Under the pieces are notes generated by a model. That model made no database searches and was not told the DNA's origin. It saw nothing but the letters and a program-made list of their open reading frames with translations. A DNA stretch of 64,000 nt from a virus (taxonomy: Duplodnaviria > Caudoviricetes): the IMG/VR virus record IMGVR_UViG_2513237100_000001, positions 1 to 64,000 of that record. The stretch is one strand, 5' to 3'. Both the position numbers and the translations under genes were made by a program. Of this stretch, positions 3,123 through 40,083 are shown piece after piece. Every line of letters begins with the position of its first letter. Position 1 is the first letter of the stretch.

Positions 3123-3125
3123 CCC

Positions 3126-3165: not shown

Positions 3166-3192
3166 AATCCGTGCCTAGCCCGTGGAGGTCCC

Positions 3193-21473: not shown

Positions 21474-21582
21474 GGGTGCTCCCGTGTGCTTTCCCGCGGG
21501 TTCCGGTACTTCGGGCACCGAGCATCATTCCAGACAGCGGGGGTCGTCTGGGAAGGACCCTGGGGGCGGGCGCGCCGTGGTT

Positions 21583-24178: not shown

Positions 24179-24426
24179 TATGGACCTCGTTCCGGAGTAC
24201 GGCCCGGGACACCAAAAGGCCCCAGGTGGGTCTTGGTTCGTGGAGAACCTGAAAGTCGCTCGACCTGCTCGGCCCCGGTCGCCAAACCGGATCCGTAAGT
24301 CGGGCCTTAGCTCGGTCGCCAAACCGAGCCGTAGGAAGTGGCCGCGCACGATGCGCCAACATCAGCGGCCAGCGGTAGAGGAAGTGCCCCCGCCAAGGGG
24401 CCCAGGACCTCCCACTCAGAACGTCG

Positions 24427-24663
24427 CTACGTCACCTGATCTCCCTTGCTGGGTTCGGTCTGCCCCTGCGCCTGGTCGGCGCGGGAAGTCTGGGTGATCT
24501 GCCGGACCGTCTGGCACGGCCACCATTCGCCGTCCATGCCGCATGTTGGGTAGGTGTAGGGCACGCCTTCGATGTCCTCGTCGAACGGCTGGTGCGGCAT
24601 GCCCTCAGCGTCGATGTACGGGGGCTCGTTCTCGGCCTGGCCGGTCGCACGGGCAGCGCTCAT
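24427..24663 (-). CDS. Hypothetical protein
   Basis: GGAGG RBS; C..WWPCQTV. Confidence 0.65.
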   Translation of the reverse strand: MSAARATGQAENEPPYIDAEGMPHQPFDEDIEGVPYTYPTCGMDGEWWPCQTVRQITQTSRADQAQGQTEPSKGDQVT

Positions 24664-25025
24664 CGCTCGCCCTCCGTCCCGCTGGTGCCGGGGCACTGGA
24701 AGAGGACGTCCATGCGCATGAACGTGTGCGAGGAGTGCCGCTCCGCGTACCCGCAGAGGGGCGACTTGGCTTCGGTCCCGTTGATGACGCGGGCGACACG
24801 ACAAGCGGTCTCCCAGATGCCGTAGCCGGGCTCGTTGTCGCGGTACGGGGCCAGCCACGCTAGGGCGTTCGCCGTCTCGTCCAGCAAGTCCGCCACCGGA
24901 TCGGCCAAGCCCTTCAGCTTGCCGTCCAGGTGCGGGGCTGCGGCGCGCAGGGTGTCGGCAGCTTGCTGGAGTTCCGCTGCGGTGGGCCAGGTGGTGCGGC
25001 GGCGCGCTTCGAGGTTGTCGCTCAT
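24660..25025 (-). CDS. Hypothetical protein
   Basis: GGAGG RBS, ATGA coupling. Confidence 0.7.
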   Translation of the reverse strand: MSDNLEARRRTTWPTAAELQQAADTLRAAAPHLDGKLKGLADPVADLLDETANALAWLAPYRDNEPGYGIWETACRVARVINGTEAKSPLCGYAERHSSHTFMRMDVLFQCPGTSGTEGER

Positions 25026-25480
25026 CGCTCGCCCTCCGTCCAGCCGTAGCACTCCGCGAGCGCGACGACGGTCGGGCAGGGGTGCGGGGTAGCGGTCCGG
25101 AAGGACACCGAGTTTCCCTCGCTGTCCTCTTCCGACTCCTCGGGGCGGGCGCAGGTGATGCATCCGCCCATGCCGTCCGGCTGGTGCTCCGCGATGAGCT
25201 TGCGGTCGGCGGCGCAACGGCGCAGGACCGAGGCGGGGTCATGCAGGGCGATGTGTACCGACTGCGGCTTAGTCGGGTATCCCTCGTCGTAGACGACTGT
25301 CCTGTCGCGCTCGTCGCTGACGCCAGCTCCGCTGGTCTCGCCTTCTTCGATTTCGTCGTCCGGGCACCAACCACTGTGCCAGCGGCCGTCTCCGCCGTCG
25401 CAAGCTTCTTGGGCGACTCGCTCATGCTCGGCGATGGCAGTGTTCAGGAAGGCGAGGATGGCCTCGCCCTGGGTGGTCAT
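25022..25480 (-). CDS. DUF6221-like protein
   Basis: HIALHDPASVLRRCAADRKLI..PCPTVVALA. Confidence 0.8.
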   Translation of the reverse strand: MTTQGEAILAFLNTAIAEHERVAQEACDGGDGRWHSGWCPDDEIEEGETSGAGVSDERDRTVVYDEGYPTKPQSVHIALHDPASVLRRCAADRKLIAEHQPDGMGGCITCARPEESEEDSEGNSVSFRTATPHPCPTVVALAECYGWTEGER

Positions 25481-25869
25481 GCGCTTGTGCGGGTAGTGGT
25501 GACAGGGCCTGCGTGCGTCGGCGGTGTGATCATCTCGCCGGAAACGCTAGGCCTACTGTCTGCGGGGATGAGTCCCCGGGTACTCTTCTGCATGTCGACA
25601 CCTTGACCTTGTCTTTGGGGTGTTGGCCGGCCGCCGAAGTCTGTTGGGACTGTCTGCGGCACCGGCTCCGCGTCGATCCCGGTTACCAGCCGGGGGAGCG
25701 GAGCCGTTCTATTTGCTGTTGTGCCCCAGAAACCTGAGTGGTCGTCTGGCGCATAGCACAGCCTACTCGTTGCGGACACTACTTGTCCCCCTCCAGCCGA
25801 TCGTGTTGTTCATCCGACAAGTCATCACATCCAACGACACCGGCAACCTGTGCGCCGTGGACCCGTGCC

Positions 25870-25903
25870 GTCCTATAGTTTTGCGACTTTAATAACGTGA
25901 TCA
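25870..25903 (+). repeat. Left copy of a perfect 34-bp inverted repeat
   Basis: GTCCTATAGTTTTGCGACTTTAATAACGTGATCA; exact reverse complement at 37936-37969. Confidence 0.95.
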
Positions 25904-25925
25904 AGCAAGGCTGGCCCGGCACCCC

Positions 25926-26354
25926 TCAAGACGCCCTGGCCAGCAAAAAGGCGGGAAGAGACTCGCCAACCCCGGGCCCTTCCACCCGGATCGGGTGCAC
26001 GTCCGCCGGGCCCTGATTGCCCGGCGGGTCCTCGGCGGCGCGACGCCCCGCCCTGGCTGTGGTGGCCGCCCGTGTGCACTTCGGGCAGCGGCACTTCAGC
26101 ATGTTGTACCGGTACTCGTCGTGCGGGATGCCCTCCTGCCGCACCTTCGCCCCCACCTCCCGGGCCTCGACCAGGGCGGCCGCGAACTTCCGATCCGTAC
26201 GGGCATGCCGGGTAGGTACGGCCCGGTTGATCCCAGCGTGCTCGGCGGCCTCCCCCAGGCGCATGCCGTGCCGGACCGCGTCAAGGAACGCCTGACGTGT
26301 CGGCTCGTCGAACACGGTCGGCCGGCCCCGGCGGGGGGTGTGGGGTTGGGTCAC
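25926..26354 (-). CDS. HTH plus Zn-finger protein
   Basis: RGRPTVF..FLDAVRHGMRLGEAAEHAGI; H..Y..CRCPKC. Confidence 0.75.
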   Translation of the reverse strand: MTQPHTPRRGRPTVFDEPTRQAFLDAVRHGMRLGEAAEHAGINRAVPTRHARTDRKFAAALVEAREVGAKVRQEGIPHDEYRYNMLKCRCPKCTRAATTARAGRRAAEDPPGNQGPADVHPIRVEGPGVGESLPAFLLARAS

Positions 26355-26764
26355 GGGTGCCCTCCATCCCGCACCGGGCCTCGGGTGAGGGCTTCGGTGT
26401 CGGCAGGATGCTGGGGCGGGTGAACGCGTGCCGATCTACCGGCCATGCGTCCCATCGCCACGAACCCGGCCTCGTCCAGGGCGGCACGCAGCCGGTGCAG
26501 GGCGTCCGGGGTCCAGGTGGGGCGTGCCGCGGCTTTTCCCGCCTGGTAGCCGACGGCCAACGCCGCCTCCCACACCGCCCGCACCACAACCGGGTCCGCA
26601 TCAGGGAAGAGCAACTCCGGGAGCTTGCCGGGGCGGCTGGTGGCTTTGAGCATGCCGTGGGCGATCAGGCCGGCGAGGTAGTCCCCGGAGGACTGGCACC
26701 GGTCGGCGAGCACCTGGTCGGTGTCGGCGGCCGCAGACGGCTGCGGAATGGGGGTGGTGGTCAT
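26351..26764 (-). CDS. Hypothetical protein
   Basis: Coupled at both ends. Confidence 0.7.
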   Translation of the reverse strand: MTTTPIPQPSAAADTDQVLADRCQSSGDYLAGLIAHGMLKATSRPGKLPELLFPDADPVVVRAVWEAALAVGYQAGKAAARPTWTPDALHRLRAALDEAGFVAMGRMAGRSARVHPPQHPADTEALTRGPVRDGGHP

Positions 26765-27783
26765 GCGGCAGGCTCCAGAACAGTCGGGATACGGCGAGAG
26801 CGTGAAGTGCGGGAAGAGTGGGCCGGTCCCGCGACGATGGCGGGGGCGGCGGCCGTCGAGGACACGGCCAGTACAACCGAGGTGTCGCCGGTGACCGTGA
26901 CAGCCAGCAGCAGTTGCTCGTACGCGGCACGAAGCCGGGCCCGGAACCCTCGGCGCGGCGGAACCGTGGCAGGAAGCACAGGCACGGGGCGGCCGGCCAG
27001 GCGGCGGGGGCCGCGCGGCATGTCCTCCATACCCGGCAGCACCAACTGGGGGCCCACCGTGCGGGTCGGTGGGGCGATACGGCGCTGCCGCACCCCGTCC
27101 ACCGTCGGGGCCGCCGCGTACGGCATCGGCCCGTCCGGGCGGATCCGCATCGACCGGGGCAGCAGCCCGTGCTCGACCGCGGCGGCGAGCAGTTGGTCGC
27201 GGGTTGCTCGTTCCCGGTCCAAGCCGAGCATGCCGACGAGCGCGGACCGGTGCCAGTTCGCGGTCCGTAGGTCCATGCTCGCCCGGTAGGCGACCGCCTC
27301 CGGGTCGGTGTTGCGGGCCAGGGCGGCGAGGACGGCCCGCTTCTGCGGTGTGCGGGCATCGTCCAAGCTCCGCACCGTGGGCGTCGCTTCGGTGGCCGCC
27401 GTGCCCGTGCCGACCGTCGCAGCATGCCGGCGGGCGATCAGTGCCCGGTGCCTGGCGAGAGCCAACTCCCCACCCATCACGCCTTCCGGCTCGACAAGGT
27501 GCTCGACACCAGCCTCGTCCAGCGTCGTGGTGTTCGCGTACGTACGGCAGGCGGCCAGGACAGGGCACCGCTTGCAGATCGCCAGGGCGGCACGCTCCCG
27601 GGCCCGGCGAACCCGCTGCGGCTCCGCACCGTCATCCGTGTACGGGCCCCACGCGTCGATCGGCACACCCGGGTCCGCGGCCGACACCCGCGGGTCGTCC
27701 GGGTCGCCGGCGCAGCCCCGGTACTTGTAGTGCCGGTCATCGACCAGGTGTTGCCGGGCGGTGATCGCGTCCATGGTGGTCAT
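26761..27783 (-). CDS. Divergent WhiB-like protein with long C-terminal region
   Basis: RGC...ICKRCPVLAAC...GVMGG. Confidence 0.75.
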   Translation of the reverse strand: MTTMDAITARQHLVDDRHYKYRGCAGDPDDPRVSAADPGVPIDAWGPYTDDGAEPQRVRRARERAALAICKRCPVLAACRTYANTTTLDEAGVEHLVEPEGVMGGELALARHRALIARRHAATVGTGTAATEATPTVRSLDDARTPQKRAVLAALARNTDPEAVAYRASMDLRTANWHRSALVGMLGLDRERATRDQLLAAAVEHGLLPRSMRIRPDGPMPYAAAPTVDGVRQRRIAPPTRTVGPQLVLPGMEDMPRGPRRLAGRPVPVLPATVPPRRGFRARLRAAYEQLLLAVTVTGDTSVVLAVSSTAAAPAIVAGPAHSSRTSRSRRIPTVLEPAA

Positions 27784-28076
27784 GCGGGGTCCCCCTCGTG
27801 CGGGTGGTGCGGGTAGTGCGGTGTGCGGGCCAGTTCCGCGGTGACAATCCGGTCGGCCTCCGCGAGTACCTGGCCTTCGAGCTCGGCCGCCCGGTGCTCG
27901 GCAACCAGACCAGCAATCCGGGCTTGGAACGCGTCCATGTCCCGGTGGTCCGCGGCCCGCGTCAGGCGGACCGCGGCACGCTCCATACGGATCAGGTGCC
28001 GCAACTGGCGGACCCTCCACCAAGCGGCGGCCGCCAGGGTCAGGGCGCACGTGGCGCCCAGCAGAATCAGGTACAT
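27780..28076 (-). CDS. N-terminal TM plus coiled-coil protein
   Basis: GGAGGAGG RBS, MYLILLGATCALTLAAAAWW. Confidence 0.7.
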   Translation of the reverse strand: MYLILLGATCALTLAAAAWWRVRQLRHLIRMERAAVRLTRAADHRDMDAFQARIAGLVAEHRAAELEGQVLAEADRIVTAELARTPHYPHHPHEGDPA

Positions 28077-28120
28077 CGGTGTCGCCTCCTCCATGTCGGG
28101 GCGCCGAAACGGGCGTGTGG

Positions 28121-28267
28121 TCACCGGCGGGGGTGCCGGTCGGGCCGGTAGCGGGCGTACTCCTCGGGCAGCGGCGGCATACGGCCCGCCGCGTGCCGCC
28201 ACCACGCCACCGCGAACGGGGCGGCCAGCAGCAGGAACACGACGACCAGAACTACGGCGACGGCCAC
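28121..28267 (-). CDS. Small membrane protein
   Basis: AAGGAGG RBS, hydrophobic N-terminus. Confidence 0.6.
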   Translation of the reverse strand: MAVAVVLVVVFLLLAAPFAVAWWRHAAGRMPPLPEEYARYRPDRHPRR

Positions 28268-28346
28268 CAGGGCCTCCTTCGCGGTGCGGGGAACAGAACG
28301 GCCGGCCCCGGGACGGGACCGGCCGGTGGTGCAGCGGGTGTGCGAG

Positions 28347-28940
28347 TCAGGCGATGTGTGTCCAGCCGTGCCCGTTGACAATGCGAGAGACGGTTGGGCG
28401 ACTTATGCCGTACTCAGCGGCCAGCACTCGCTGGAGCTCGCCAGCCGCGGCGCGGGCCCGGATCTGCAACACCTGAGCGACCGTGAGGCGAGCCTGCCCG
28501 TTAACTTCCCCGGTGTTCCCTCGCCCCTTGGCGTCCCGGTCGGCGGCGTTGTCTGCCTTGGTCCCCAGAAACAGATGGGACGGGTTCACGCATGGCGGGT
28601 TGTCGCAGCGGTGCAGCACGCAAAGCCCCTCCGGGGCCCGGCCGTCGAGAAGGACAGAGACCCGGTGCGCTTTGATCGTTGGGCCGGTCCGCTGACCCTC
28701 GGGGCGCATCACGCCGTACCCGTGCTCGTTCAGGGCTGCGGTCCACTCCCAGCACTCGTCAGGGCTCCGCTTGTCGACCTTCGCCCAGAAGCGATCGGCC
28801 AGGGTCTGTTTGGCGGGGGCGTCCGTAGTGCCGGTGCGCTTGAGCCTGCCCAGGTGCATTTCGCATAGCCCGCGCCCCTTATGGGGGCGGGAGCAGCCGT
28901 CAAGGCTACACAGGCGGGGCGTGTTGTACTTCGCTGGCAT
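28347..28940 (-). CDS. HNH endonuclease (homing-type)
   Basis: RFWAKVDK..CWEW..AHR..LHRCDNPPCVNPSHLFLGT..DN; C-terminal HTH. Confidence 0.93.
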   Translation of the reverse strand: MPAKYNTPRLCSLDGCSRPHKGRGLCEMHLGRLKRTGTTDAPAKQTLADRFWAKVDKRSPDECWEWTAALNEHGYGVMRPEGQRTGPTIKAHRVSVLLDGRAPEGLCVLHRCDNPPCVNPSHLFLGTKADNAADRDAKGRGNTGEVNGQARLTVAQVLQIRARAAAGELQRVLAAEYGISRPTVSRIVNGHGWTHIA

Positions 28941-29824
28941 CAGGCAGCGCCCCTCTCGGTGTTGTGGCCGTTCGCGGTGGCCTGGTTCAGGAAGGTGATC
29001 TGCTCGTTCAGCAGGGTGCGCAGCGTCTGGCGGCCGTTCGGACCGTCGACTTCCTCGTCGGCGACCTTGTGCTTCTCGGCGTCCGCGAGGACCTGGGAGA
29101 GGGCGATGGCGTTGGCCCAGCAGGTCTTCGCCTGGCCGACGAGCCGGCCAACGTGGCTGCCAGGCCCAGTGTCGGGCTTCGAAGGCTTCTGCCGTGCTGG
29201 TGCGGTCGTGGGCGCATCCTCGGTGTCCAGAGACGCACCCCCGGACTCCACGATCTCCAGGTCCGACGACGTCCACAGGTCCAGAGCCATCCCGAAGCGC
29301 ATCCCCGCGTTCCGGATCGCGTCGCCGATGACCTCCTTCACCGCGTCGCCACCCGTCTTGTCGCCGGCGTGCCCGTACCCCAGCCGGGACATGCCGCACA
29401 CTGTCAGGCGGATCCACAGACCGCGGTACCCGTCGACCTGCGGCAGCCCCCGCTCGTCGACCGTCAGGGGCTCCCAGTCCCAGAACGGGTCCACGTTCAG
29501 GAGGCGGTTCGTCGCTTCGGCGTGGCCGACGAACTTGAGGTCGATGTGCCCGTTCCTCGGCATGCGCTGCTTGCACTTGTCGCACGGGCCGTAGGTGTGC
29601 TGGTTGCAGCCCTTACCGCGAGAGTCCTTGCATGCCCTGCACCACACGCGCGGCAGGTACCGGACTTCGGCGGGGAGGAACGGCTCACGGAGCTTGTGGA
29701 GAGCTTCGATCTGCTCGGCCCGGGTGTACCCGAAGGTGTTCGACGGGCGGGTGTCGGCCTGGTTTTGGGTGTGCGTGGTGGGGCCCTCCGCCATGGTGGC
29801 GGGGGCCTCAGTGGTGGTAGCCAC
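28940..29824 (-). CDS. Rad52/Sak-like single-strand annealing recombinase
   Basis: LREPF..FVGHAEATNRL..WIRLTVCG..GYG..KEVIGDAIRNAGMRFGMALDLW. Confidence 0.85.
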   Translation of the reverse strand: MATTTEAPATMAEGPTTHTQNQADTRPSNTFGYTRAEQIEALHKLREPFLPAEVRYLPRVWCRACKDSRGKGCNQHTYGPCDKCKQRMPRNGHIDLKFVGHAEATNRLLNVDPFWDWEPLTVDERGLPQVDGYRGLWIRLTVCGMSRLGYGHAGDKTGGDAVKEVIGDAIRNAGMRFGMALDLWTSSDLEIVESGGASLDTEDAPTTAPARQKPSKPDTGPGSHVGRLVGQAKTCWANAIALSQVLADAEKHKVADEEVDGPNGRQTLRTLLNEQITFLNQATANGHNTERGAA

Positions 29825-29911
29825 GAGGTCTCTTTCCTCTATGCGGTGGAAACGCTGTGCTGCGGGTGTGGGCCCTGTGTCGGCATTGCAGACCCCACAC
29901 CCGCCGGGTGC

Positions 29912-30754
29912 CTACTCGGCGGTGCTCGGGTCGATGCCGTACTCGGCCAGCAGGTACGCCAACCCGATCTGCATCGGCGTCAGCCCCTCCGCCTTGGCCT
30001 TGACCTCGTCGAACAGGTCATTGTTCGGGTTGACCTTCATCGGGACCATGTCCGCGTCCGCCGACCACACCGGGGCGGTCGCGGTGAACTCGCCGACGAG
30101 GAACCGGTCGAAGCCCGCCTCGATCTCCGTGGTCACGTTCTTCCCAGCGTCCGCGACCCGGGACCGGATCAGATCCCGGACGGGGCGCGGCACCTGTGGG
30201 GCGCGGGTCGCACCACTCGGCCGGACGGTGGTGTCCGCACCCGGGGCGTACGGGCCGGTCTCGTACGTGCGCATCAGCCAGTCCGCCGCCACGTGCATCG
30301 GCTTCACGCCGGTGTCCGCGACCCGCTGACGCAAGGCATCGTCGGGGCGGACGTTCAGATTTACCTTCTCCTCGCTGGTGCCGCGGCGGGCCCGCACCGG
30401 CGGGTTGGGGGTGAACGCCCCGGCGAGGTAGGCGGTGAACCCGTTGTTCACGTCGGCGGTCACCGTCCGGCCGGCCTGTTCGGCACCGGCGACGATGCGG
30501 TCCCGTGCGGTGACGGGGATGCGGATTGACAGGTTCTCGTCGACGTTCAGGGCGTCACGCAGCTCGTACGTGGACAGGGTGAGGACCGTGTCGACGTGCT
30601 CGGCGAGGTCGGGTGAGTTGACTTCGCGGAGTCGGGCGGAGGCGGCGGTGAGTCCGGCACGCAGGTTGCGGCGGGTGGGCACGGGGCGGGGTCCTCTCGG
30701 GGGACGCCCGCTTGTGCGGTTGTTGGGCGGGCGCTTGTTGGGGGCGTTGGCCAC
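29912..30754 (-). CDS. Putative repressor with four tandem ribbon-helix-helix-like units
   Basis: GGAGG RBS; repeated beta-alpha-alpha pattern (NLSIRIP, NLNVRP, RAPQVP, PMKVNP). Confidence 0.65.
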   Translation of the reverse strand: MANAPNKRPPNNRTSGRPPRGPRPVPTRRNLRAGLTAASARLREVNSPDLAEHVDTVLTLSTYELRDALNVDENLSIRIPVTARDRIVAGAEQAGRTVTADVNNGFTAYLAGAFTPNPPVRARRGTSEEKVNLNVRPDDALRQRVADTGVKPMHVAADWLMRTYETGPYAPGADTTVRPSGATRAPQVPRPVRDLIRSRVADAGKNVTTEIEAGFDRFLVGEFTATAPVWSADADMVPMKVNPNNDLFDEVKAKAEGLTPMQIGLAYLLAEYGIDPSTAE

Positions 30755-30831
30755 GCCAGGTTCCTCCAATCGTATTGCAGACGCCCGGACGGTTAGTGGG
30801 TATCTGCGCCGGGGCTGTCCCGACACCCAGA

Positions 30832-30861
30832 ACAATACCCGTTAACGTATTGCATAAGCAA
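30832..30861 (-). promoter_or_regulatory. Conserved promoter/operator (TTGCTT-N18-TATTGT)
   Basis: Spacer GCAATACGTTnnCGGG shared with 12174-12203. Confidence 0.7.
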
Positions 30862-30911
30862 GAGGGTTCATGGCATGGTGTTCCCAACGCCAAGACGACG
30901 CGGGGGACACG

Positions 30912-31310
30912 ATGCGACACACCAACCGGCAGACCGCCACCAAGACCCTCACCGACATCTACCGCAGCATCGACAAGGCCCAGGCGGTCACGATCACGTA
31001 CCTCGACGAGGACGGCACCGAGTCGGTGCGGACGATTGAGCCGTTTGATGTCCGCACCACCAAGTCCGGCCGCATTCAGGTCCGCGCAATGTGTCGACTC
31101 CGGGGCGAGGCCCGCTCCTTCTACCTCCACCGGATCGTGTCGTACACGCTGCACCGGATGGCGTTCGTCCTCGACCGGCCGGAGGCAACAACTGCGGCCG
31201 GGGCCGTCATCGTGGTGCGTAGCGCCGCACAGGTCATCGCCCGCGAACTCGGCCGGGACTACCTGCCCCGCACCGCCGTCACCCACTCAGACACCACGCT
31301 CGCCGCCTAG
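30912..31310 (+). CDS. Stand-alone WYL-domain protein
   Basis: VTITY..GTESVRTIEP..AMCRLRGEARSFYLHRI. Confidence 0.88.
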   Translation: MRHTNRQTATKTLTDIYRSIDKAQAVTITYLDEDGTESVRTIEPFDVRTTKSGRIQVRAMCRLRGEARSFYLHRIVSYTLHRMAFVLDRPEATTAAGAVIVVRSAAQVIARELGRDYLPRTAVTHSDTTLAA

Positions 31311-31319
31311 GAGGCACCT

Positions 31320-31604
31320 GTGAACCTGCCGGACATCACCGCCCCGGACATGACGGGTCCGGTTGTGTGGATCCTCTCCGAGGGTGAGATGCATGAGGGC
31401 GGCTCGATCCTCGGGGTCTACCTTGACCGCGACCTTGCCCGAGGCGCTCTCACCGCTGCCGCCCGGAAGCTGCACGACCGGTTCACGATCGATGATGCCC
31501 GTCAGGACGACGACGGTTCCATCCACGTCGAAGGTGGGTGCGACTGGATCGCTCTCGAACCGCACCCGGTTGTCACTGCGGCGCAGGTAGAGGCCGAGGC
31601 ATAG
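31320..31604 (+). CDS. Hypothetical protein
   Basis: AGGAGG RBS. Confidence 0.7.
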   Translation: MNLPDITAPDMTGPVVWILSEGEMHEGGSILGVYLDRDLARGALTAAARKLHDRFTIDDARQDDDGSIHVEGGCDWIALEPHPVVTAAQVEAEA

Positions 31605-31638
31605 CAAGGCCACCTCCTGTGCAGGGGGTGGCCTTGCT
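31603..31638. terminator. Long stem-loop terminator
   Basis: AGCAAGGCCACCTCCTG..CAGGGGGTGGCCTTGCT. Confidence 0.8.
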
Positions 31639-31714
31639 GCGGGCGTACCCGTCAGATAACGGTGATTGTACAAAAACAGGATCACATCCGCTACCCACAC
31701 CGGACACTGACCCC

Positions 31715-31909
31715 ATGACCAACCAACAACAACTCCACCTCGACACCCAAGCACCCGCCCACCGATACCGGTACTGCCGACGCTGCGGACGACCCCTCAC
31801 CGCCCCCGGGTCACGCTTCCGCGGCTTCGGGCCCGACTGCGACCCCACCCGGCACCCCACCGCTGCGGCCACCCGCGACATCGACCAAGACGCCCTGCCC
31901 GGCACCTAG
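31715..31909 (+). CDS. DUF6011-like Zn-finger protein
   Basis: CRRCGRPLT...S..RGFGPDC. Confidence 0.75.
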   Translation: MTNQQQLHLDTQAPAHRYRYCRRCGRPLTAPGSRFRGFGPDCDPTRHPTAAATRDIDQDALPGT

Positions 31910-31918
31910 GAGCCCATC

Positions 31919-32134
31919 GTGAGACCCCTGAACCCTCCAACCGAGACGGACGCCGTTGAAGGCGAGCAGGACCCCTTCGGGCCGTACGAGTTCGTCGAGA
32001 TCCATGATCGATGCCTCGGTGCGGAGGGGGACTGCGACTGGCAACGCTGCACCCAACGCCGGAGCACCTGCCGCTGCATGTGCCCCGCTTGCTGCGGCGA
32101 CACCCCCGACGTCTGGGGTGCACCCGTCTACTGA
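31919..32134 (+). CDS. Small Cys-rich protein
   Basis: AGGAG RBS. Confidence 0.55.
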   Translation: MRPLNPPTETDAVEGEQDPFGPYEFVEIHDRCLGAEGDCDWQRCTQRRSTCRCMCPACCGDTPDVWGAPVY

Positions 32135-33210
32135 CCCGGTGGTTCCAGCAGCGGGACCACGTCCACGGACCGGCGGATCTGCTCCATCGTCGTCGGCAAC
32201 GGCTCCCACCCATACTCGCCAGCCATCACCCAGTTCAACGCCGTGATCCCCCGCGCGTACGCCTGCCGCAACCCCTGCGCCCTGAGCGGAATCCCCGTCG
32301 GCCCCGCCTTCGACGGCGTCAGCGACACCCACAACGCCGACCGGCCGCCCATCAAGGGCACCTCATCAACCAGCCGCTCCCGAACCTCCAGCCAACGACG
32401 CACCGCCACCCGGGACCCTTCCCGCAACTCGAACCACTCCACCTCCGGCACCGGCGGCAACGCGGCCGCAACCTCCAGCACCCGGGCCTCCGCCGCCAAC
32501 GACCGGTCATGCCCCAGCCCCGACAAGACCTTCGCCACCGTCGACGGATGCAACCCCGTCACCGCGGCGACCTCACCGACCCGAGCCTCATCCCGCCGCT
32601 GCGACTGCCGGCGCACCCCAACCGCCACCAACCCCGGCGCCAGGTCGTCCAACGTCTGCCGGGCCAACTCCCCCGACCGCGGCGCCGCGTCCAGGAGAAC
32701 GGCGACCATCGCCAGCAGCCGAGCCCGGTCCTCCGGCGACAACGCCATCCCGTCCCGCTCCAGCGGGCCCCGACCGGCCAGGTCCACCATCCCCCGATAC
32801 AACGCCGCCAGCGACCGGCCGCCCACGGTCGGCTTGAGCTCGGGTACTTCCAGCTCCGGCAACCGCACCCGCCGACCCGCGGGCAACACCCGGGCGGCCA
32901 GAATCTCCAAGCAGTTACGAACCACCCGGAGCGTCGTTACCGGCAGCGGTTTCCCCACGTCCTTGTCCCAGTGCCGCAGCTCGCCGGCCGCAGCCAGGTC
33001 CCAGAACGGGCGCAGCGCCGCCCACGTGAACAACTGGGCGGCCGTACGCGAGGAGCGGGCCGGCATCTCGTCCCGGCCCACCGCCCGGTCGAACATGCCG
33101 ACAACCATCCGCAATTGCCGCAACCTGCCCTCGGACACCGTGCCCGCCATGCCGTCGACCACCGCGGCGAGCTGCCGCACCGATGCCGCGCTGTACTGCT
33201 TGGGGGTCAC
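32128..33210 (-). CDS. Tyrosine-recombinase-fold protein, apparently lacking the catalytic Tyr box
   Basis: RLLAMVAVLLDAAPRSGELA..LDDL; AVRRWL; LWVS; ends shortly after MEQIRRS. Confidence 0.7.
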   Translation of the reverse strand: MTPKQYSAASVRQLAAVVDGMAGTVSEGRLRQLRMVVGMFDRAVGRDEMPARSSRTAAQLFTWAALRPFWDLAAAGELRHWDKDVGKPLPVTTLRVVRNCLEILAARVLPAGRRVRLPELEVPELKPTVGGRSLAALYRGMVDLAGRGPLERDGMALSPEDRARLLAMVAVLLDAAPRSGELARQTLDDLAPGLVAVGVRRQSQRRDEARVGEVAAVTGLHPSTVAKVLSGLGHDRSLAAEARVLEVAAALPPVPEVEWFELREGSRVAVRRWLEVRERLVDEVPLMGGRSALWVSLTPSKAGPTGIPLRAQGLRQAYARGITALNWVMAGEYGWEPLPTTMEQIRRSVDVVPLLEPPGQ

Positions 33211-34355
33211 GTGGGCCCCTCGCTCTGGGCGGCGGCCTTCTTCGCGATCTGGGACAGCGGGTTGCGGTCCCCAGTGCTGTCCTCCTCGTCGATGTACCCG
33301 ATCAGGGCCTTCGACCGGTCGTCCCACCCGCCGTGCCGGCCGATGTCCACGATGTCAGCCCCCGCGGCACGGGCACTCTTCACCAGGCCGCGGCGCAGTG
33401 AGTGCGACGTCCACTTTCCTGGCAGGCCGGTGCGGTGGATGGACCGGCTGACGACGTCGGAGGCCCCGTTGATGCTCATCCGTCCGTCCGGGTCCCCGAT
33501 CGGCTCACCCTTGCGGGTCATCTCGGCACCCATGTATCCCCACTGGTCGATCCGCATGAACAGCGGCCCCTTGGTGTGCCCTTCGTGTGCGAGGGCTTCC
33601 ACGAGACTGCGTACAGCGGCGACGGTACACAGGTCGTGGTCCGGGTCAGGCTGGACTTCGACGTTCTGCCACTTCTTCCGCTTCTTCCGGTACACCCGCA
33701 CGGTGAACCCGCCTCCGGGCAGGTCGGTGAAGCTGCCCGGCCAGTTCAGCGGTGCGAGTTCGCTGCCTCGGGAGGCGATGGCGTGCCCGAGGAGCATGAG
33801 GGCGGCGTCCCGCTTCCCGACGAGGGTGTTCCGGTCGAGGTGGGCCAGGGCTTCGGAGAGGACGGTACGGTCGGCGGCCGTCGCCTTGTTCGGGGTCGCG
33901 GCCGGGTCCTGGGCTTCGGACAGTTCCCGCCGGTACCCGGCGACGACCTTGCGGGCCCCCATGGTGTCCGGCGGCTTGTACCCGGCGGCCCGGTGGGAGG
34001 AGCGGATCGACGCGATGATCCGGTCCATCGTCGCGGGCCCGTACGGCCGACCGGTTCGCTTGCGGGGCGTGCGCTTCAGGTAGGACAGGTATGCGGTGAC
34101 GGTCTGCGGCGCGGCGGGCAGGACCCGGCGGCCCACCTGCTCGCACCATTCGGCGAACTGCTTCATGTCGCCCTCGTACGCCCGGCTGGTGTCCTTCGGG
34201 ATGCCCGCCCTGACGTCCGCCTCGGCCTCGGGCGGCAGCCACGCGTCCGGGTCCTCCTTGGCCAGCGGAACAGCCGGGGCCCGGTCTTCAGGGATCGCGG
34301 GGAGCAGGTCACCCTCGATCAACTCCCCGTCCATCACGTTGTCGTGCTCGGTCAT
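33207..34355 (-). CDS. Cre-like tyrosine recombinase
   Basis: SAM-like N-domain; RDAALMLLG..SRGSEL; SHSLRRG; HGGW; GYI. Confidence 0.93.
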   Translation of the reverse strand: MTEHDNVMDGELIEGDLLPAIPEDRAPAVPLAKEDPDAWLPPEAEADVRAGIPKDTSRAYEGDMKQFAEWCEQVGRRVLPAAPQTVTAYLSYLKRTPRKRTGRPYGPATMDRIIASIRSSHRAAGYKPPDTMGARKVVAGYRRELSEAQDPAATPNKATAADRTVLSEALAHLDRNTLVGKRDAALMLLGHAIASRGSELAPLNWPGSFTDLPGGGFTVRVYRKKRKKWQNVEVQPDPDHDLCTVAAVRSLVEALAHEGHTKGPLFMRIDQWGYMGAEMTRKGEPIGDPDGRMSINGASDVVSRSIHRTGLPGKWTSHSLRRGLVKSARAAGADIVDIGRHGGWDDRSKALIGYIDEEDSTGDRNPLSQIAKKAAAQSEGPT

Positions 34356-34606
34356 CGGCGCAGCCGGATCGTTCGTGCCGCCCGGTGAAGATCCTGGGCC
34401 ATCGCCGCCTGCAACGCTGGCGTGTCCAAGACGAGCAAGCGCCCGGCAGGGCAGGCGGGACTCGTCATCACGGTGAGGACGGCATCCAGACCCTGCGATG
34501 CCACAGCATCGCGCACCTGTCCCTCGCGGTGAGGTTCGCAGACGAGGGTGCGCCGCGCGTCACCGATGGCCTGCGCGTAGAACTTGATCTCCTCCTCCAA
34601 GGTCAC
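34352..34606 (-). CDS. Hypothetical protein
   Basis: Coupled at both ends. Confidence 0.65.
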   Translation of the reverse strand: MTLEEEIKFYAQAIGDARRTLVCEPHREGQVRDAVASQGLDAVLTVMTSPACPAGRLLVLDTPALQAAMAQDLHRAARTIRLRR

Positions 34607-34995
34607 GGTCGCCAGCCTTCCTGGTAGTCCGGGTGGTCGGCGTACGGCAGAAGCTCGTACGGAAGTAGCGCGGACGCCAAGTCGTACGAGTCGTGCCCAG
34701 CCTCGATGGCGTCAGACAGTGCGGCAAGACGCTTGCGTGCAGCCTGCGTCTCCCTCAGCGTTCGAGCCGGATCCTGTTTCGCAATGTGCTCGGCCTGCTC
34801 CTCGCTTGGAGACCCCTCATCGAAAACAACCGCCTCCGTGAATACGTCGGCGTACTCCGGTGCGTTAGCGACGGACACGGGATAGCTTCCATCGGTTGTC
34901 CATTCGCCACTCAAGCCGTGGCGCGCACCCTCGGCGGTCCGCTCATCCTCGTCCAGACGTGACTGCCAGAACGCCAGCATTTCGGACTCGTTCAC
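34603..34995 (-). CDS. DUF6221-like protein (second copy)
   Basis: RLDEDE..HIAKQDPARTLRE..LPYADHPDYQEGWRP. Confidence 0.85.
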   Translation of the reverse strand: MNESEMLAFWQSRLDEDERTAEGARHGLSGEWTTDGSYPVSVANAPEYADVFTEAVVFDEGSPSEEQAEHIAKQDPARTLRETQAARKRLAALSDAIEAGHDSYDLASALLPYELLPYADHPDYQEGWRP

Positions 34996-35432
34996 GACCG
35001 TCTCCCCTGCTCTGATCTTTGACTCCATAGAAGGAACATTACCAACAGTGATAGGCATCACACTGCCCCGCGCGGACTGGCGCGCGGGGCAGTGTGGACG
35101 TCTGTGTGAATCTTCGCTGTGCGCGATCCTAAGGATCAGGCCCGGATGCACGGAGTGCGGATCACCTTGTTCTCGCCCTTGTCGCGCCCGCAGATCCGGC
35201 AGGCACTCTCTATTGGGTGCTCAGGGCAGAAGGGGCGACCTCGCGAGTCCTGCGACCATCCTGCGACCAGGCGGCGTACCGGAGTTCGCCGGACGCAGTC
35301 GTCGACCTGGCAGCACGCCTGGGGCTTCGAGAGGAAGGGGCTCATGCTTCCAGCGTGGCACGGATGCGTTGTCGCGCTGCCCCCGCTCAAGGCATGCGCG
35401 TGTCCACCATTGCGGGCGCTCGTTGCCACGGT

Positions 35433-35612
35433 ATGAACGAATTCACGCAGCAAGTGCAGGACGCGTACGACCGAGGCGGCAAGGGCGAGGCCCGAAAGGT
35501 CTTCCTGGACACGTGCCTTGAAAGGGACTGGACAAAGGACGAAATCGTCGAGGCCATCACGCTCTACAGGTCCTTCCCTATCAGGGAAGAGGCTGGCCAC
35601 GCGTCAGCCTAG
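35433..35612 (+). CDS. Small hypothetical protein
   Basis: Protein-like 59-aa ORF. Confidence 0.45.
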   Translation: MNEFTQQVQDAYDRGGKGEARKVFLDTCLERDWTKDEIVEAITLYRSFPIREEAGHASA

Positions 35613-35678
35613 CGGGCGCGCAGGGCCACCACGGCAGTACGGGGAACCACGGGCGGGACCACGTACCGAGCATCCGCG

Positions 35679-35837
35679 TCACGGGTACAGGAGCCGGGAC
35701 AGTGGCGTGGGGCGGGCCCCGGGTTCGTGCGGCCGGTCCGGCGGTTCGGGCTCGGCCGCTGGCGCCTCGGTGACGATCTGGTCGTGCGGGTCCAGGCTGG
35801 CGGGTTCCGTGGCCGGCTCGGCGTGGTTCGCGCTCAC
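35679..35837 (-). CDS. Small Pro-rich, possibly leaderless ORF behind a late-type box
   Basis: ACCAGGGGCAACA box at 35867-35879 and GACCGT -10 just before the GTG. Confidence 0.4.
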   Translation of the reverse strand: MSANHAEPATEPASLDPHDQIVTEAPAAEPEPPDRPHEPGARPTPLSRLLYP

Positions 35838-35995
35838 GACTCCACGGTCCCACTGTGCGGGCGGGATGTTGCCCCTGGTGGTCTGTCACGGCGCGGTAAA
35901 CGGGGAGGTGTTCCCCGGTTCTTCGCCAGGAGCGATCCTGCGGCGAGAGGGCGTGGAGTGCATTGGCGGGCGACACGCTGCATAACCCTTGGAAT

Positions 35996-36032
35996 CCTTG
36001 GGTTGCCAAACGTTACCTTGGGTTGCTAGCCT
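35996..36032 (+). promoter_or_regulatory. Promoter TTGCCA-N18-TAGCCT with direct repeats CCTTGGGTTGC
   Basis: Repeats at 35996-36006 and 36016-36026; leaderless ATG at 36039. Confidence 0.7.
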
Positions 36033-36038
36033 GATGGC

Positions 36039-36353
36039 ATGACAGGCACCGCAGAACCCACCGGCCGCTGCTACTGCGGCTGCGGCAAACTCGTCGGCTA
36101 CGGCCGGTACTTCGCCGCCGGCCACGACAAGACCGCCGAAGCCGCCTTCCTCGCCCTCCACCACAACGGCACCGTCGCCCAGATGCTCCACGACCACGGC
36201 TATCGGGCCGTCGCCGACCGGGACGACGCCAAGTCCGTCACGAAGGCGGCCGTCGACCAGAAGTTGTGGCAGGAGTGCCCGAAGGGGTGCGGCTACCGAG
36301 GCGCCCGCGAAAGCATCAACAACCACGTCAACCGACACCACAAGGAGAACTGA
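36039..36353 (+). CDS. Zn-finger hypothetical protein, first gene of the cassette array
   Basis: CYCGCG..FAAGHD; CPKGC..H...H. Confidence 0.8.
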   Translation: MTGTAEPTGRCYCGCGKLVGYGRYFAAGHDKTAEAAFLALHHNGTVAQMLHDHGYRAVADRDDAKSVTKAAVDQKLWQECPKGCGYRGARESINNHVNRHHKEN

Positions 36354-36355
36354 CC

Positions 36356-36616
36356 ATGGCGCAGGTAACCGCCCGCGACGCCCTGACCTACTCGCTCAAG
36401 CGAGAGCAGGCCCAGTTCGCGGAGGAGGCCGAGCGGCTGGCCAAGCAGGCCGCGTACATCGCCGCGAACCCGGCCGCCACTGGTCGGACGATCTCCGGCG
36501 ACATCGCCCGCCTGCTTCAGGAGGCCACCTTCCTCCTGAAGCGCGCCGCCACCATCGAAGCCGGACTCGAAGCTGTCGAGCTCATGGGTGCCGAAGCCAT
36601 CACCACCGAGCAGTGA
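36356..36616 (+). CDS. Hypothetical helical protein (cassette)
   Basis: AAGGAG RBS; ends TTEQ*. Confidence 0.75.
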   Translation: MAQVTARDALTYSLKREQAQFAEEAERLAKQAAYIAANPAATGRTISGDIARLLQEATFLLKRAATIEAGLEAVELMGAEAITTEQ

Positions 36617-36627
36617 GGACGACGACC

Positions 36628-36798
36628 ATGGCGCTGTGCCGCGACTGCTCCCGCGTCATCCCGTGCCACTGCCACGTCGCACCAGCCGTACAGATCCGGC
36701 CCGGTGTGTACGAGGCGGGGACTCGACCGAGTGCACCACTGACCATCGAAGAACGGCGGCGCCTCGTCGGGGGCCCGTCACCCACCACCAAGCAGTAA
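36628..36798 (+). CDS. Small Cys-containing protein (cassette)
   Basis: Starts and stops inside junction repeats. Confidence 0.65.
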   Translation: MALCRDCSRVIPCHCHVAPAVQIRPGVYEAGTRPSAPLTIEERRRLVGGPSPTTKQ

Positions 36799-36809
36799 GG
36801 ACTACGACT

Positions 36810-37007
36810 ATGAGTAACACCGTCACCCGGATCACGAATCGGCTGCACGAGGAAGCGCTGATCGAAAACGAGGAGCGCGACTGGTACCGAACGGGCCGAA
36901 TCCCGTGCAGCGACTGCGGCACGATGGTCCGCACCAAGACCCTGGAAACCCTGCCGCCGCACGGCTGCACCGACCGCCAGCGTGCCCGACACGCCACCGA
37001 GCAGTGA
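36810..37007 (+). CDS. Small Zn-finger protein (cassette)
   Basis: CSDC..HGC; bounded by repeats. Confidence 0.7.
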   Translation: MSNTVTRITNRLHEEALIENEERDWYRTGRIPCSDCGTMVRTKTLETLPPHGCTDRQRARHATEQ

Positions 37008-37018
37008 GGACCACGACC

Positions 37019-37408
37019 ATGGAGGAAACCTTCCAGCACCACTGGGGACAGGTCTACGAATCCTGCAACCCCGACGAGAAGAAGCACCTGATCATCGAAT
37101 CCATCGACCGGGCCGCAGGAACCGCCAAGGTCAGCTTCCCCGGCGGACGCGGAGGCCGCGACCGAAACAGGCGACGGCGCACCATCAAGCTGTCCTCGCT
37201 CCATTCCACCGGAACAACCCGAACCGGAGCTCAGCGACGCAGCGGATATCGCCTCATGGCCGGTCCCCCGAAGAGCGGTGAGGACATGTGCGAGATGTGC
37301 TACCACTACTTCAACCGGCCTGACCTGGAATCCGGTTGCTGCCAGCCGTGTACACAGTGGCTGACGGAAACCTTCCCGCGCCCCTCCGTAAGGACCACCC
37401 ATGCGTAA
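37019..37408 (+). CDS. DUF6354-like protein (cassette)
   Basis: GQVYE..LHSTGTTRTGAQRRSGYRL. Confidence 0.65.
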   Translation: MEETFQHHWGQVYESCNPDEKKHLIIESIDRAAGTAKVSFPGGRGGRDRNRRRRTIKLSSLHSTGTTRTGAQRRSGYRLMAGPPKSGEDMCEMCYHYFNRPDLESGCCQPCTQWLTETFPRPSVRTTHA

Positions 37409-37703
37409 CGTCGTTCCGCAAGACATCGACGACATCAGCGAAGACGACGTGAAGCGGATCGTCGGCTGGATCGGACGGCACGCACTGCCTGCGACGCTGC
37501 CGCACACCATGCCGGAGTACCGCACAGGGCTCGCCCTGGACGCGGCAGTCAACTGGACTGCGGATCACCTGAGGGCCCGGTACCCGTTGTTGTCAGCTCA
37601 AGAGCACCGGAACGTCGTACGCAACGACTGGAACATGCTCGTCAAGGTCGCAAGTGTGTGGAGTGACGAGGACGACTACCCCGGATGGCAGACCATCCGC
37701 TAG
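37401..37703 (+). CDS. Hypothetical protein (cassette)
   Basis: AAGGA RBS; W..DDYPGW C-terminus. Confidence 0.7.
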   Translation: MRNVVPQDIDDISEDDVKRIVGWIGRHALPATLPHTMPEYRTGLALDAAVNWTADHLRARYPLLSAQEHRNVVRNDWNMLVKVASVWSDEDDYPGWQTIR

Positions 37704-37935
37704 TAGCGGACCGCGACCATGACGACGTGCCGGGTATACGGCACGGTCAAAGCGCCGCCTGACCGAAGCCCAACAGGCCATCAACGACGCCAGCGAGCAG
37801 TGAGGACCGCGACCATGAATGTCCGCAGGATCACCAGCGTGCCCATGAGCGGGCCTGCCACCTACGGCCCCGACGCGGGCAGTATCACGCGTTGGACGAT
37901 TTAGGGGCGGGTTGGGCGTGGCAGCTCCGCGAGCA

Positions 37936-37969
37936 TGATCACGTTATTAAAGTCGCAAAACTATAGGAC
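37936..37969 (-). repeat. Right copy of the 34-bp inverted repeat
   Basis: TGATCACGTTATTAAAGTCGCAAAACTATAGGAC. Confidence 0.95.
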
Positions 37970-38009
37970 AACGAGGGGCGAGCCCGAGAAACCCCGGACC
38001 ACCCCACCC

Positions 38010-38390
38010 TCACACTCCAGTTCGGTTGTACTCATCCACCAACGGATGCGGATCCGGCGGCGGGCCAACCGGGCTCCGTGCCCACCGGTACAGGTCGTCC
38101 ATCGACCAGGAGAACGCCTGCAAAATCCGTTCCATGCGGGTCTGCTTCACCCGGATCTGCTCGTTCTCCGACCGCAGGAGACCGTTCTCCTTGTCCACCC
38201 GCTCAACCGTCGCCTGCAACACCGCCAGATCGGCCGTACGAAGAGCGGGAGCGGCCTGCGCGGCAGCCGCCGCCGTGTTCGCCGCCGCAGTCGCCTGAGC
38301 AGCCCGCGTCGTCGCACGGGCCGTGAACACCCCCGCTACAACCATGCCAACCGTCCCCAGGACAGCCACCAGCCCAGACCAAATGCTCAT
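38010..38390 (-). CDS. Lysis-cassette membrane protein (TM plus coiled coil)
   Basis: N-terminal TM; position after the holin. Confidence 0.75.
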   Translation of the reverse strand: MSIWSGLVAVLGTVGMVVAGVFTARATTRAAQATAAANTAAAAAQAAPALRTADLAVLQATVERVDKENGLLRSENEQIRVKQTRMERILQAFSWSMDDLYRWARSPVGPPPDPHPLVDEYNRTGV

Positions 38391-38854
38391 GCTGCGTTGC
38401 CTTTCCCAGGGCGGCAAGGCACTGGGGGAACCGAATACTCGGGAACCGTGGCCGCCCACATGATGACCCCGACATGCGAGGTGAGGTACCAGAGCGCAAC
38501 AAACGCGCCCCGCGAATACTCGCCGCTGACGGCAGCAGCAAGATAGGCGACAGCCCACACCGTGGGGGGCAGGAGTGCCGCCACGTAACCGGCCCAGTCA
38601 CGACCGATACGAAGAAACGCGGAACTGACCGTGACCAGCCCCACCACAATCCACAACCACGCCCAGTGCCGCAGCGAACACATAGACGTGAGAAGTCGCA
38701 GACCATGCGCGTCCGGAGGAGCAACGAGGAAGCTGATCCCCCAGCACGTTTTGCCGGCGCCGATGATGAGAAGGAAGACGCCGCGGCGGCCCACACGCTC
38801 ACCCAGACGCCGCAGAGTGTGGCGTAGCGCTCGCAGAGGGGCCGCCGAACCCAT
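38387..38854 (-). CDS. 4-TM lysis-cassette membrane protein
   Basis: GRRG.FLL then four hydrophobic helices. Confidence 0.75.
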   Translation of the reverse strand: MGSAAPLRALRHTLRRLGERVGRRGVFLLIIGAGKTCWGISFLVAPPDAHGLRLLTSMCSLRHWAWLWIVVGLVTVSSAFLRIGRDWAGYVAALLPPTVWAVAYLAAAVSGEYSRGAFVALWYLTSHVGVIMWAATVPEYSVPPVPCRPGKGNAA

Positions 38855-39111
38855 CAGACGCCCTTGGCGAGGCTGGCCGAGTTGGTGACGTCCCGCCACC
38901 GGGCGACAAGCCCCTTCAGCAGGGATGTGGCTGCGGCGACACCGGCAACACCGGCGGCCTGCCACATGCCAATGTCGAACGGCTGGGTGAGAACGAGACC
39001 ACCGACGAACGCCTGGAGGCCGGTGGAGACCACCCGCTCGGCCAGGTCGCGGGCGTAGGTCTTGGCTCCCTTGATGACGGTCTGCGTCTGGGGCAGCAGG
39101 GGGTCGGTCAT
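38854..39111 (-). CDS. Holin (r1t-like)
   Basis: DLAERVVST..QAF; two TMs; directly after the endolysin. Confidence 0.85.
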   Translation of the reverse strand: MTDPLLPQTQTVIKGAKTYARDLAERVVSTGLQAFVGGLVLTQPFDIGMWQAAGVAGVAAATSLLKGLVARWRDVTNSASLAKGV

Positions 39112-39112
39112 G

Positions 39113-40081: not shown

Positions 40082-40083
40082 GG

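Follow-up and report, generated by a model that had tools for sequence, protein, structure and literature searches.

Matched inverted repeats bounding a recombinase-encoding segment of a pZL12-like Streptomyces phage-plasmid: putative recombinase targets around DNA found in one orientation

Introduction

What keeps two short repeats identical when they lie inverted to each other 12.1 kb apart in a phage genome, and do they serve to flip the DNA between them? The question is raised by a stretch of 64,000 nucleotides of viral DNA (Duplodnaviria; Caudoviricetes; positions 1 to 64,000 of IMG/VR record IMGVR_UViG_2513237100_000001; hereafter the window), which is part of an 86-kb pZL12-like Streptomyces phage-plasmid belonging to a family of ~85-100 kb plasmids related to the phage/plasmid ZL12. 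An initial annotation had pointed to perfect AT-rich 34-bp repeats around two tyrosine recombinase genes and had proposed that the enclosed 12-kb segment is an invertible switch or a Flp-like device for amplification.

The repeat is real, functional and unusual. We read its two copies as putative cis targets of the module encoded between them, which consists of two recombinase-fold proteins, P0001 and P0003, and at which exchange would be abortive, rare or counter-selected; on the sequence comparisons given below, we hold the case for this reading to be evenly balanced.

Results

Two identical inverted copies of an asymmetric element

The 34-mer GTCCTATAGTTTTGCGACTTTAATAACGTGATCA occurs exactly twice in the window, once on each strand and with 0 mismatches between the copies (Table 1), and no match with up to three mismatches arose in 100 dinucleotide-preserving shuffles, so the perfect repeat stands as first described. 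A repeat finder extended the pair to 37 nt with one mismatch (97% complementarity); no other inverted repeat in the window is as long. In the complete 86,042-bp record there are no copies beyond these two, and no half-sites of the element were found. A/T accounts for 22 of the 34 bases, in a window with a G+C content of about 69% (range about 63-74%). The GTCC end points outward in both copies, in the rep-side copy (IR-L, for left inverted repeat) toward the rep/par operon and in the lysis-side copy (IR-R, right) toward the 3' end of the lysis block. The sequences immediately beyond the element at IR-L and IR-R are unrelated, as had been noted.

Comparison with relatives showed that the conserved unit is 38 bp long (positions 0-37), and that about 13 variable bases at its centre separate an invariant outer block, T-GTCCTATA, from a conserved inner block, ARTAAC-nn-GATC-n-TGC. 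Among 35 distinct sites, positions 0-8 (the outer block) and 22-27 (ARTAAC) were unvarying, an invariance largely imposed by the search patterns used, and positions 9-21 were variable; T0 and the TGC at positions 35-37 were conserved though the patterns left them free. The conserved blocks at 0-8 and 22-37 are dissimilar, and the site thus has two different arms around a short centre. Its arms had been described as weakly symmetric, which is correct but understated: in 36 distinct sites, the best complementarity between 13-nt arms averaged 5.4/13, compared with 6.2 +/- 1.0 for shuffled sequences, and dyad symmetry is therefore absent. The proposed likeness to lox/FRT sites holds for length (~34 bp, 13 + 8 + 13) and fails for the two inverted 13-bp arms; because it lacks dyad symmetry, the site is not, to judge from its arms, a canonical lox/FRT site.

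The two copies evolve in concert and share a variable centre

The inverted copies, 10-14 kb apart, occupy the same pair of boundaries both in the window and in the relatives L001, L004-L007, L020, L022 (ZL12), L023 and L024, and the same layout was found in four further contigs, in pCQ4 and in an S. albidoflavus plasmid. There are at least three diverged site types (TTTTGCGAC, AAAATTCACAC and GACGAAAAACGGAAC), and both copies of one genome are always of the same type. In 14 genomes, the copies within a genome differed on average at 0.86 of 38 positions, whereas orthologous copies from different genomes differed at 6.4-7.0. In 14/14 genomes, the copy nearest or co-nearest to each site was its partner in the same genome, and none of 100,000 permutations reached the observed within-genome sum. 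The ratio of within-genome to between-genome mismatches was 0.84 and 0.97 in the 12 bases on each side of the element, whereas it was 0.14, 0.00, 0.08 and 0.25 in the variable parts of the element, with 0.00-0.08 in the centre.

Between genomes, variation at positions 19-21 is close to saturation (pi = 0.64; flanks 0.34-0.51). Within genomes, by contrast, the two copies agree in all of the central 8 bp in 12 of the 14 cases, and in each of the remaining two there is a single mismatch. Because these bases are near-saturated between genomes and still matched within each, the centre appears to behave like a strand-exchange spacer, a pattern that is as expected for exchange and not proof of it. 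The uncontacted positions of a plain protein-binding site should drift apart, whereas recombinase partner sites must keep their exchange region identical. Four-gamete pairs were also detected across the site; they involve few bases, and recurrent mutation may account for them.

These patterns bear on the origin of the repeats. If they were the ends of a 12-kb transposon-like insertion, one could understand that recombinase genes lie within the segment and that both outer ends begin with TG, as many transposon ends do, but the bases just beyond the two copies form no target-site duplication, the same two boundaries are found in all relatives, and another plasmid family has a single-copy version. 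Chance or neutral remnants are ruled out by the strong purifying and concerted evolution across diverged relatives. Either origin is, in our judgement, hardly credible.

The segment encodes an intact Cre-like recombinase and a degenerate partner

The P0003 gene starts with a GTG that overlaps the stop codon of P0001 (GTGA). All of the 17 matches of P0001 to PDB sequences were to Cre or its engineered derivative Tre (E about 1e-6, residues 64-360, nearly the full length), and Pfam returned weak Phage_integrase and SAM-like matches. No variation was seen at R196, K225, H318, R321, W344 or Y354 across 34 aligned homologues, and the R-K-H-R-(H/W)-Y set is intact. P0003, in contrast, matched no Pfam or NCBIfam family. 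Its AlphaFold model (predicted local distance difference test score, pLDDT, 84.6) had XerA, XerH, Tn1549 Int, Cre, IntI and lambda Int as best Foldseek matches, over the whole length. The alignments showed that P0003 retains the box-I Arg; the His of HxxR is absent, the second Arg is unconserved, and there is no conserved Tyr near the nucleophile position. In addition, P0003 has a LacI-like helix-turn-helix insertion, which matches PF00356 in some homologues. A profile alignment of P0003 with P0001 covered the box-I region only, with a probability of 0.45%. Because P0003 lacks the His, a conserved second Arg and the Tyr, the locus is best described, on these alignments, as one intact enzyme and one degenerate paralogue. 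The two annotated tyrosine recombinases are thus confirmed by fold, with P0001 intact and Cre-like, but P0003 has no catalytic Tyr.

Four recombinase lineages occur at the locus, with 23-36% identity between them. Recombinase and P0003-like partner reassort independently (L001, L004-L007, L020, L022-L024): between L006 and L007 the recombinases are 97% identical and the partners 37%, and between L023 and L024 the values are 57% and 91%.

Co-occurrence of pair and module was scored in 15 pZL12-like plasmids (Rep-positive records number more than 100). The inverted pair was present in 11/11 plasmids with a clear P0003 homologue (the window, L001, L004-L007, ZL12, L023, L024, pCQ4 and L072) and in 0/4 without P0003 (pSLE1, pSAM1, L071 and L073); L073 has a P0001-family recombinase and lacks both P0003 and the pair. 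The plasmid pSP90 (L020), which has the pair and a weak P0003 match, was excluded from the count. With this association and the spacer-like centre, the earlier suggestion that the repeats are recombinase targets looks supported.

Small phage-plasmids carry a single copy with a matched centre

A single copy of the element is found in L021, a complete 36.7-kb phage-plasmid of the same strain as the pZL12-like L005, where it lies between parA and an Xer-like recombinase gene; three metagenomic relatives of L021 likewise have one copy (family n = 4). Only ~42 bp are common to these and the large plasmids, with no flanking homology. The centre of the L021 site (GCGACACT) equals that in L005, and a second matched centre (GAGTCTTT) was seen in large-plasmid and L021-like contigs among the metagenome loci. 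These two cases suggest that the proteins of the large plasmid may be used in trans, and the shared site points to possible cross-talk between co-resident phage-plasmids.

The L021-type recombinase also occurs in pSLE1, pSAM1 and L071, all of which lack the 38-bp element. In two plasmid families, every operon with an L021-type Xer-like recombinase is immediately preceded by a dyad-symmetric AT-rich element (e.g., AGTACCAGATAATGACTGTTATTGGGTACT; Table 1), which is likely the cognate site of this recombinase. Since the enzyme has a dyad element of its own and occurs without the 38-bp element, the latter is probably not the target of the Xer-like recombinase in L021-like plasmids.

Two further candidates for a link between the plasmid families were rejected. 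P0125, a protein of 149 aa and no known family (G000 81351-81800, that is L064:17552-18001 on the plus strand; L066:32723-33166), is 52% identical between the two families and is the sole well-conserved protein common to both; as a common site-binding protein it was dismissed, being present in six plasmid records of which only two are pZL12-like. The 142-aa gene by IR-L showed no similarity to a 62-aa gene by the L021 site.

The segment is found in one orientation

For an orientation census, the outer and inner flanks of each site-bearing locus, in complete plasmids and viral contigs, were classified against 10 reference plasmids. Both flanks could be classified in 38 loci (33 of them distinct once repeat fetches are dropped; 20 of the classified loci are metagenome contigs); all were parental and no junction was recombinant. 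In a further 14 loci, one or both flanks remained unclassified; this group includes seven L021-like loci as well as L009, which later proved to be parental. When the rep-side junction was used as a query, the alignment continued through it without a break in 16/16 plasmids with long matches, all parental. P0003, inside the segment, and Rep, outside it, were on the same strand and 7-11 kb apart in 17/17 plasmids of 85-102 kb that list both. Five larger plasmids (101-177 kb) with P0003 and Rep on opposite strands were omitted from the census; the one inspected contains arsenic-resistance genes, has no recombinase annotated beside its P0003 homologue and has no site. Logan contigs from the probable source run (24500-25899, 25874-30404, 33327-37965 and 37940-39379) break inside both copies, because the repeat is longer than the assembler's word, and are uninformative about orientation.

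Free inversion would leave about half of the genomes flipped. The single orientation everywhere, over some thirty related genomes, therefore does not support a freely invertible segment or a 2-micron-like system of two isomers. The initial annotation had itself suggested looking at the orientation in relatives, and had named a sole orientation as the first half of what would refute inversion; a sole orientation is what the relatives have.

Inversion by the recombinase, acting as a switch of the DNA upstream of rep or as Flp-like amplification that generates concatemers, with a single isomer stable in the plasmid state, would still make sense of several features. The sites are identical and inverted with an intact Cre-like enzyme between them, matched centres are a requirement of recombining partners, and the Rep gene and its leader adjoin one site, as the 2-micron origin adjoins one repeat. 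Transcription at both segment ends is directed outward, and therefore either orientation keeps outward transcription at both junctions. Moreover, the sampled DNA is nearly all plasmid-state or assembled majority sequence, in which a lytic-phase isomer could be missed. These features have to be set against the complete lack of recombinant junctions, a partner protein that, by its alignments, cannot cleave, and a site without dyad symmetry. We consider inversion of this kind unlikely; what survives of it, with a similarly small chance, is a transient event of the lytic phase.

The rep-side copy adjoins a conserved leader

Between IR-L and the first rep/par gene is a conserved non-coding leader, which begins directly at the site (Table 1). 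In an alignment of 10 relatives, it had a mean column identity of 70% with long invariant blocks, was more conserved than the neighbouring coding DNA and contained two alternative middle modules; no gene is annotated there in the relatives. Pairing is kept by double changes in 14 of 75 predicted pairs, and the covariation term is weak (-0.16). The leader may be structured, or may act as a regulatory RNA or as a primer RNA. The interval 24350-25910 yielded neither iterons nor an origin; the Rep-like open reading frame (ORF) starts 1.5 kb from IR-L, and not 1.7 kb as previously stated.

Complementarity at the RNA level could be what is selected here. Both copies lie in the path of minus-strand transcription, and a leftward late transcript that runs through IR-R would be exactly complementary to the start of the rep/par leader RNA; the two RNAs could pair over 34-43 nt without a mismatch and thereby link the fate of the rep/par mRNA to lytic transcription. 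Such selection would explain why identity covers the whole element with sharp edges and why inversion is lacking. The element is contiguous with the conserved, probably structured leader, and a change in the GATC block of L020 is mirrored ~95 nt downstream in the leader, with 3/4 predicted pairs kept. However, complementarity alone explains neither the two outer blocks that are invariant across plasmid families nor the tracking of P0003 by the pair, and Rfam matched no family in 24300-39000, where the only hit was a chance miRNA match (E=0.23). We regard pairing between transcripts as very unlikely to be the function.

Another explanation assumes no exchange. The copies would be operators, insulators or unusual promoters that delimit the early region, one where the rep/par leader begins and the other where the lysis operon ends, and they would perhaps be bound by a domesticated, non-catalytic P0003 that loops or blocks DNA. 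The asymmetry of the site, the leader abutting the rep-side copy and the absence of inversion agree with this, as does the direction of the GTCC end, which faces the rep/par operon in pZL12-like plasmids and parA in 4/4 L021-like members. P0003 lacks the nucleophile and has the extra LacI-like helix-turn-helix, and the pair tracks P0003 and not the recombinase (L073 has the recombinase only). The invariant end read outward, TATAGGACA, resembles the initiation region of T7-type promoters.

This explanation has difficulty with positions that are saturated between genomes and still matched between copies, since phage operator sets, so far as is known, tolerate differences at uncontacted positions. 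Neither copy is overlapped by a sigma-70-type promoter or by an intrinsic terminator; no promoter-like sequence was found in the region of either copy, and the lone terminator-like match (25695-25710) lies away from the site. If the lysis-side copy were a promoter directed outward, its transcripts would run antisense to the lysis genes. A single-subunit RNA polymerase (PF00940) was found neither in the record, a weak point as the search controls were silent, nor in Pfam scans of the larger ORFs. Variants of the P0003 recognition helix do not correspond one-to-one with variants of the centre. A purely regulatory role is, on this balance, possible but doubtful.

A stalled exchange as the proposed explanation

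The reading of the repeats as targets of the P0001/P0003 module can be put as a series of steps. One arm would be held by P0003 and the other by P0001, and the two copies would synapse, with strand exchange in the central bases; the centres of the copies must therefore match. Half of the subunits in the synapse would have no nucleophile, and a two-strand exchange with stable inversion would therefore be inefficient. In one-strand-exchange variants of Xer systems, a single cleaving partner makes the reaction stop at the Holliday junction. Here, too, the reaction might mostly stall at the Holliday-junction intermediate or return from it, and a stalled reaction could homogenise the centres without flipping the segment. 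Candidate roles are the processing of multimers, the demarcation of the early region from the rep/par and lysis operons, and the joining of co-resident one-site phage-plasmids. More tentatively, and with correspondingly low confidence, all of this may belong to one device, in which a dead P0003 with its LacI-type insert and a Cre-like partner act on an asymmetric, lox-length inverted pair; exchange would be abortive and without flipping, the complex would loop DNA or form a boundary, and small plasmids would dock or fuse through a matched centre.

Several observations weigh against recombinase targeting. The site lacks dyad symmetry, and to our knowledge every solved core site of the Cre, Flp or Xer type has at least partially inverted arms. 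None of the three orientation surveys gave a recombination product, and the one suspect junction (L009) proved parental. The variable arm positions are partly homogenised as well (ratios 0.14 and 0.25), which simple strand exchange in the spacer does not explain. The type of site does not track the lineage of the recombinase or P0003 at the locus: the recombinases of the window and L004 are ~27% identical and the site type is the same, whereas those of the window and L023 are 72% identical and the types differ. In L021-like plasmids, which have the site, both P0001 and P0003 are missing, and use in trans must therefore be assumed for them. The co-occurrence sample is small and phylogenetically clustered, with three of the four P0003-negative plasmids in one clade. 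The rep-side copy lies exactly at the start of the leader and the L021-like copy points to parA, positions that would fit a regulatory role as well. Finally, mosaic breakpoints are not focused on the site, as conserved blocks (e.g., -394..+88) run through it; in the identity profiles of seven plasmid pairs, conserved blocks cross the site and the breaks are 50-170 nt away. An apparent breakpoint at the L006/L009 site (inner flank 99%, outer 0%) was rejected, as it reflects a diverged leader with rep homology farther out.

If targeting by the module is true, this would be a tyrosine-recombinase system in which an active and an inactive subunit work together on a dyad-less site; it would keep distant copies identical without rearranging the intervening DNA and would widen the view of recombinase targets and uses. 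The hyper-variable, copy-matched centre would then provide natural, mutually exclusive specificities like those of engineered heterospecific lox sites, which would be of practical interest for Streptomyces genome engineering. A RusA-type Holliday-junction resolvase (13606-14115) and a single-strand annealing protein (28940-29824) are encoded in the window, and in relatives an endonuclease VII gene adjoins the recombinase pair; these proteins would be relevant if the sites form Holliday junctions.

Comparison with known systems

Cre/loxP of phage-plasmid P1 (with Dre/rox, Nigri/nox and Panto/pox) also belongs to a phage living as a plasmid and has a 34-bp site whose central bases are free to vary but matched to the partner; P0001 is Cre-like in sequence and, as in Cre, has a Trp where the second His would stand. 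loxP-type sites, however, have two 13-bp inverted arms, of which there are none here; P1 has one loxP, compared with two inverted copies 12 kb apart, and the pair described here is always accompanied by a second recombinase-fold protein that appears inactive. XerC/XerD-dif (including cer/psi and CTX phage integration) shares two paralogous recombinase-fold proteins encoded side by side, two unlike arms around a short centre, and a site that is kept while the enzymes diverge, here to about 27-36% identity. In contrast to P0003, which has no catalytic Tyr, both XerC and XerD keep theirs; dif arms have partial dyad symmetry, and Xer sites are single or direct copies that resolve dimers, not an inverted pair.

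In Flp/FRT of the yeast 2-micron plasmid, which is also circular, the targets are likewise inverted and enclose the recombinase gene, and replication functions lie near one copy. The 2-micron plasmid differs in having two equimolar isomers, whereas one orientation was found here, and FRT lies within 599-bp repeats and has inverted arms. Hin/hix, Gin/gix, Cin/cix, shufflons and the fim switch also have short inverted repeats flanking a segment with a recombinase gene in or beside it. Those segments occur in both orientations and alter a promoter or a coding end, whereas the present one occurs in one orientation and its ends would read outward either way. Lastly, nutL/nutR and putL/putR of lambdoid phages are short elements, inverted in two divergent early operons, whose two copies agree within one phage, whereas related phages have different versions; they act as RNA with hairpins, but here no hairpin was predicted in the element and no antiterminator was identified.

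Genomic setting of the repeats

On the minus strand to the left of IR-L are a DUF6221 gene and the genes for the Rep-like initiator, a DciA-like protein, ParA and ParB. The segment itself contains the 142-aa gene, genes for WhiB, an HNH endonuclease and the single-strand annealing protein, WYL and DUF6011 genes, the P0003/P0001 pair, a second DUF6221 gene and an array of small plus-strand genes. The 142-aa gene product matched phrog_4044 (E=1.5e-6), and its N-terminal helix-turn-helix is weakly like that of small terminase subunits. IR-R is situated between the small-gene array and the 3' end of the minus-strand lysis block, as first annotated; to its right are minus-strand ORFs, followed by the holin and amidase genes.

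Table 1. Coordinates of the repeats and of the features discussed (window positions unless another record is named).
Feature	Position	Strand	Remarks
IR-L, rep-side copy	25870..25906	+	34-mer 25870-25903; conserved element 25869-25906
IR-R, lysis-side copy	37933..37969	-	inverted relative to IR-L; 34-mer 37936-37969
P0001, Cre-like tyrosine recombinase, 382 aa	33207..34355	-	PDB, Pfam, alignment
P0003, tyrosine-recombinase fold, 360 aa	32128..33210	-	AlphaFold model, Foldseek, alignments
Conserved non-coding leader, ~390 nt	25481..25869	-	between IR-L and first rep/par gene; begins directly at site
ParB	19675-20814	-	rep operon
ParA	20814-21518	-	rep operon
Rep-like helix-turn-helix initiator	22778-24349	-	outside segment; Pfam; PHROG replication-initiator matches
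142-aa gene	25926..26354	-	stop codon 22 nt from IR-L; 22-23 nt in seven relatives (annotation tables)
Small-gene array	36039..37903	+	reads outward to IR-R; repeated stop/ribosome-binding site/start junctions; direct-repeat family D3
Holin	38854-39111	-	right of IR-R, outside segment; Pfam Phage_r1t_holin
N-acetylmuramoyl-L-alanine amidase	39113-40138	-	right of IR-R, outside segment; Pfam Amidase_2
Dyad-symmetric AT-rich element	L021 ~6590-6630; L068 10702-10745; L069 ~13700-13750; L071 ~14242		upstream of recombinase operon

The large terminase gene maps to ~63.9-65.4 kb and is preceded by a 184-aa ORF; a role of the repeats as terminase or pac sites was rejected because the terminase genes are distant from both copies.

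Within the small-gene array, four copies of a junction of ~31 nt (…GAGCAGTGAGGAC…ATG) join small plus-strand genes at 36600-37817. These genes look like tandem paralogues with conserved joints of stop codon, ribosome-binding site and start codon, and not like integron cassettes.

At 38005-38965, next to the lysis-side copy, only homology to the 3' part (~80% over ~860 nt) of a gene of the relatives was found, with three overlapping minus-strand ORFs; in the relatives, a glycerophosphodiester phosphodiesterase gene or a collagen-like gene adjoins this copy. The region may be a truncated or frameshifted remnant of the relatives' gene.

Near the left end of the window, at 2241-4239, an MmyB-like regulator is encoded together with a type III polyketide synthase (chalcone/stilbene synthase domains), a combination that PMC4487206 notes for pZL12 and pSLE1.

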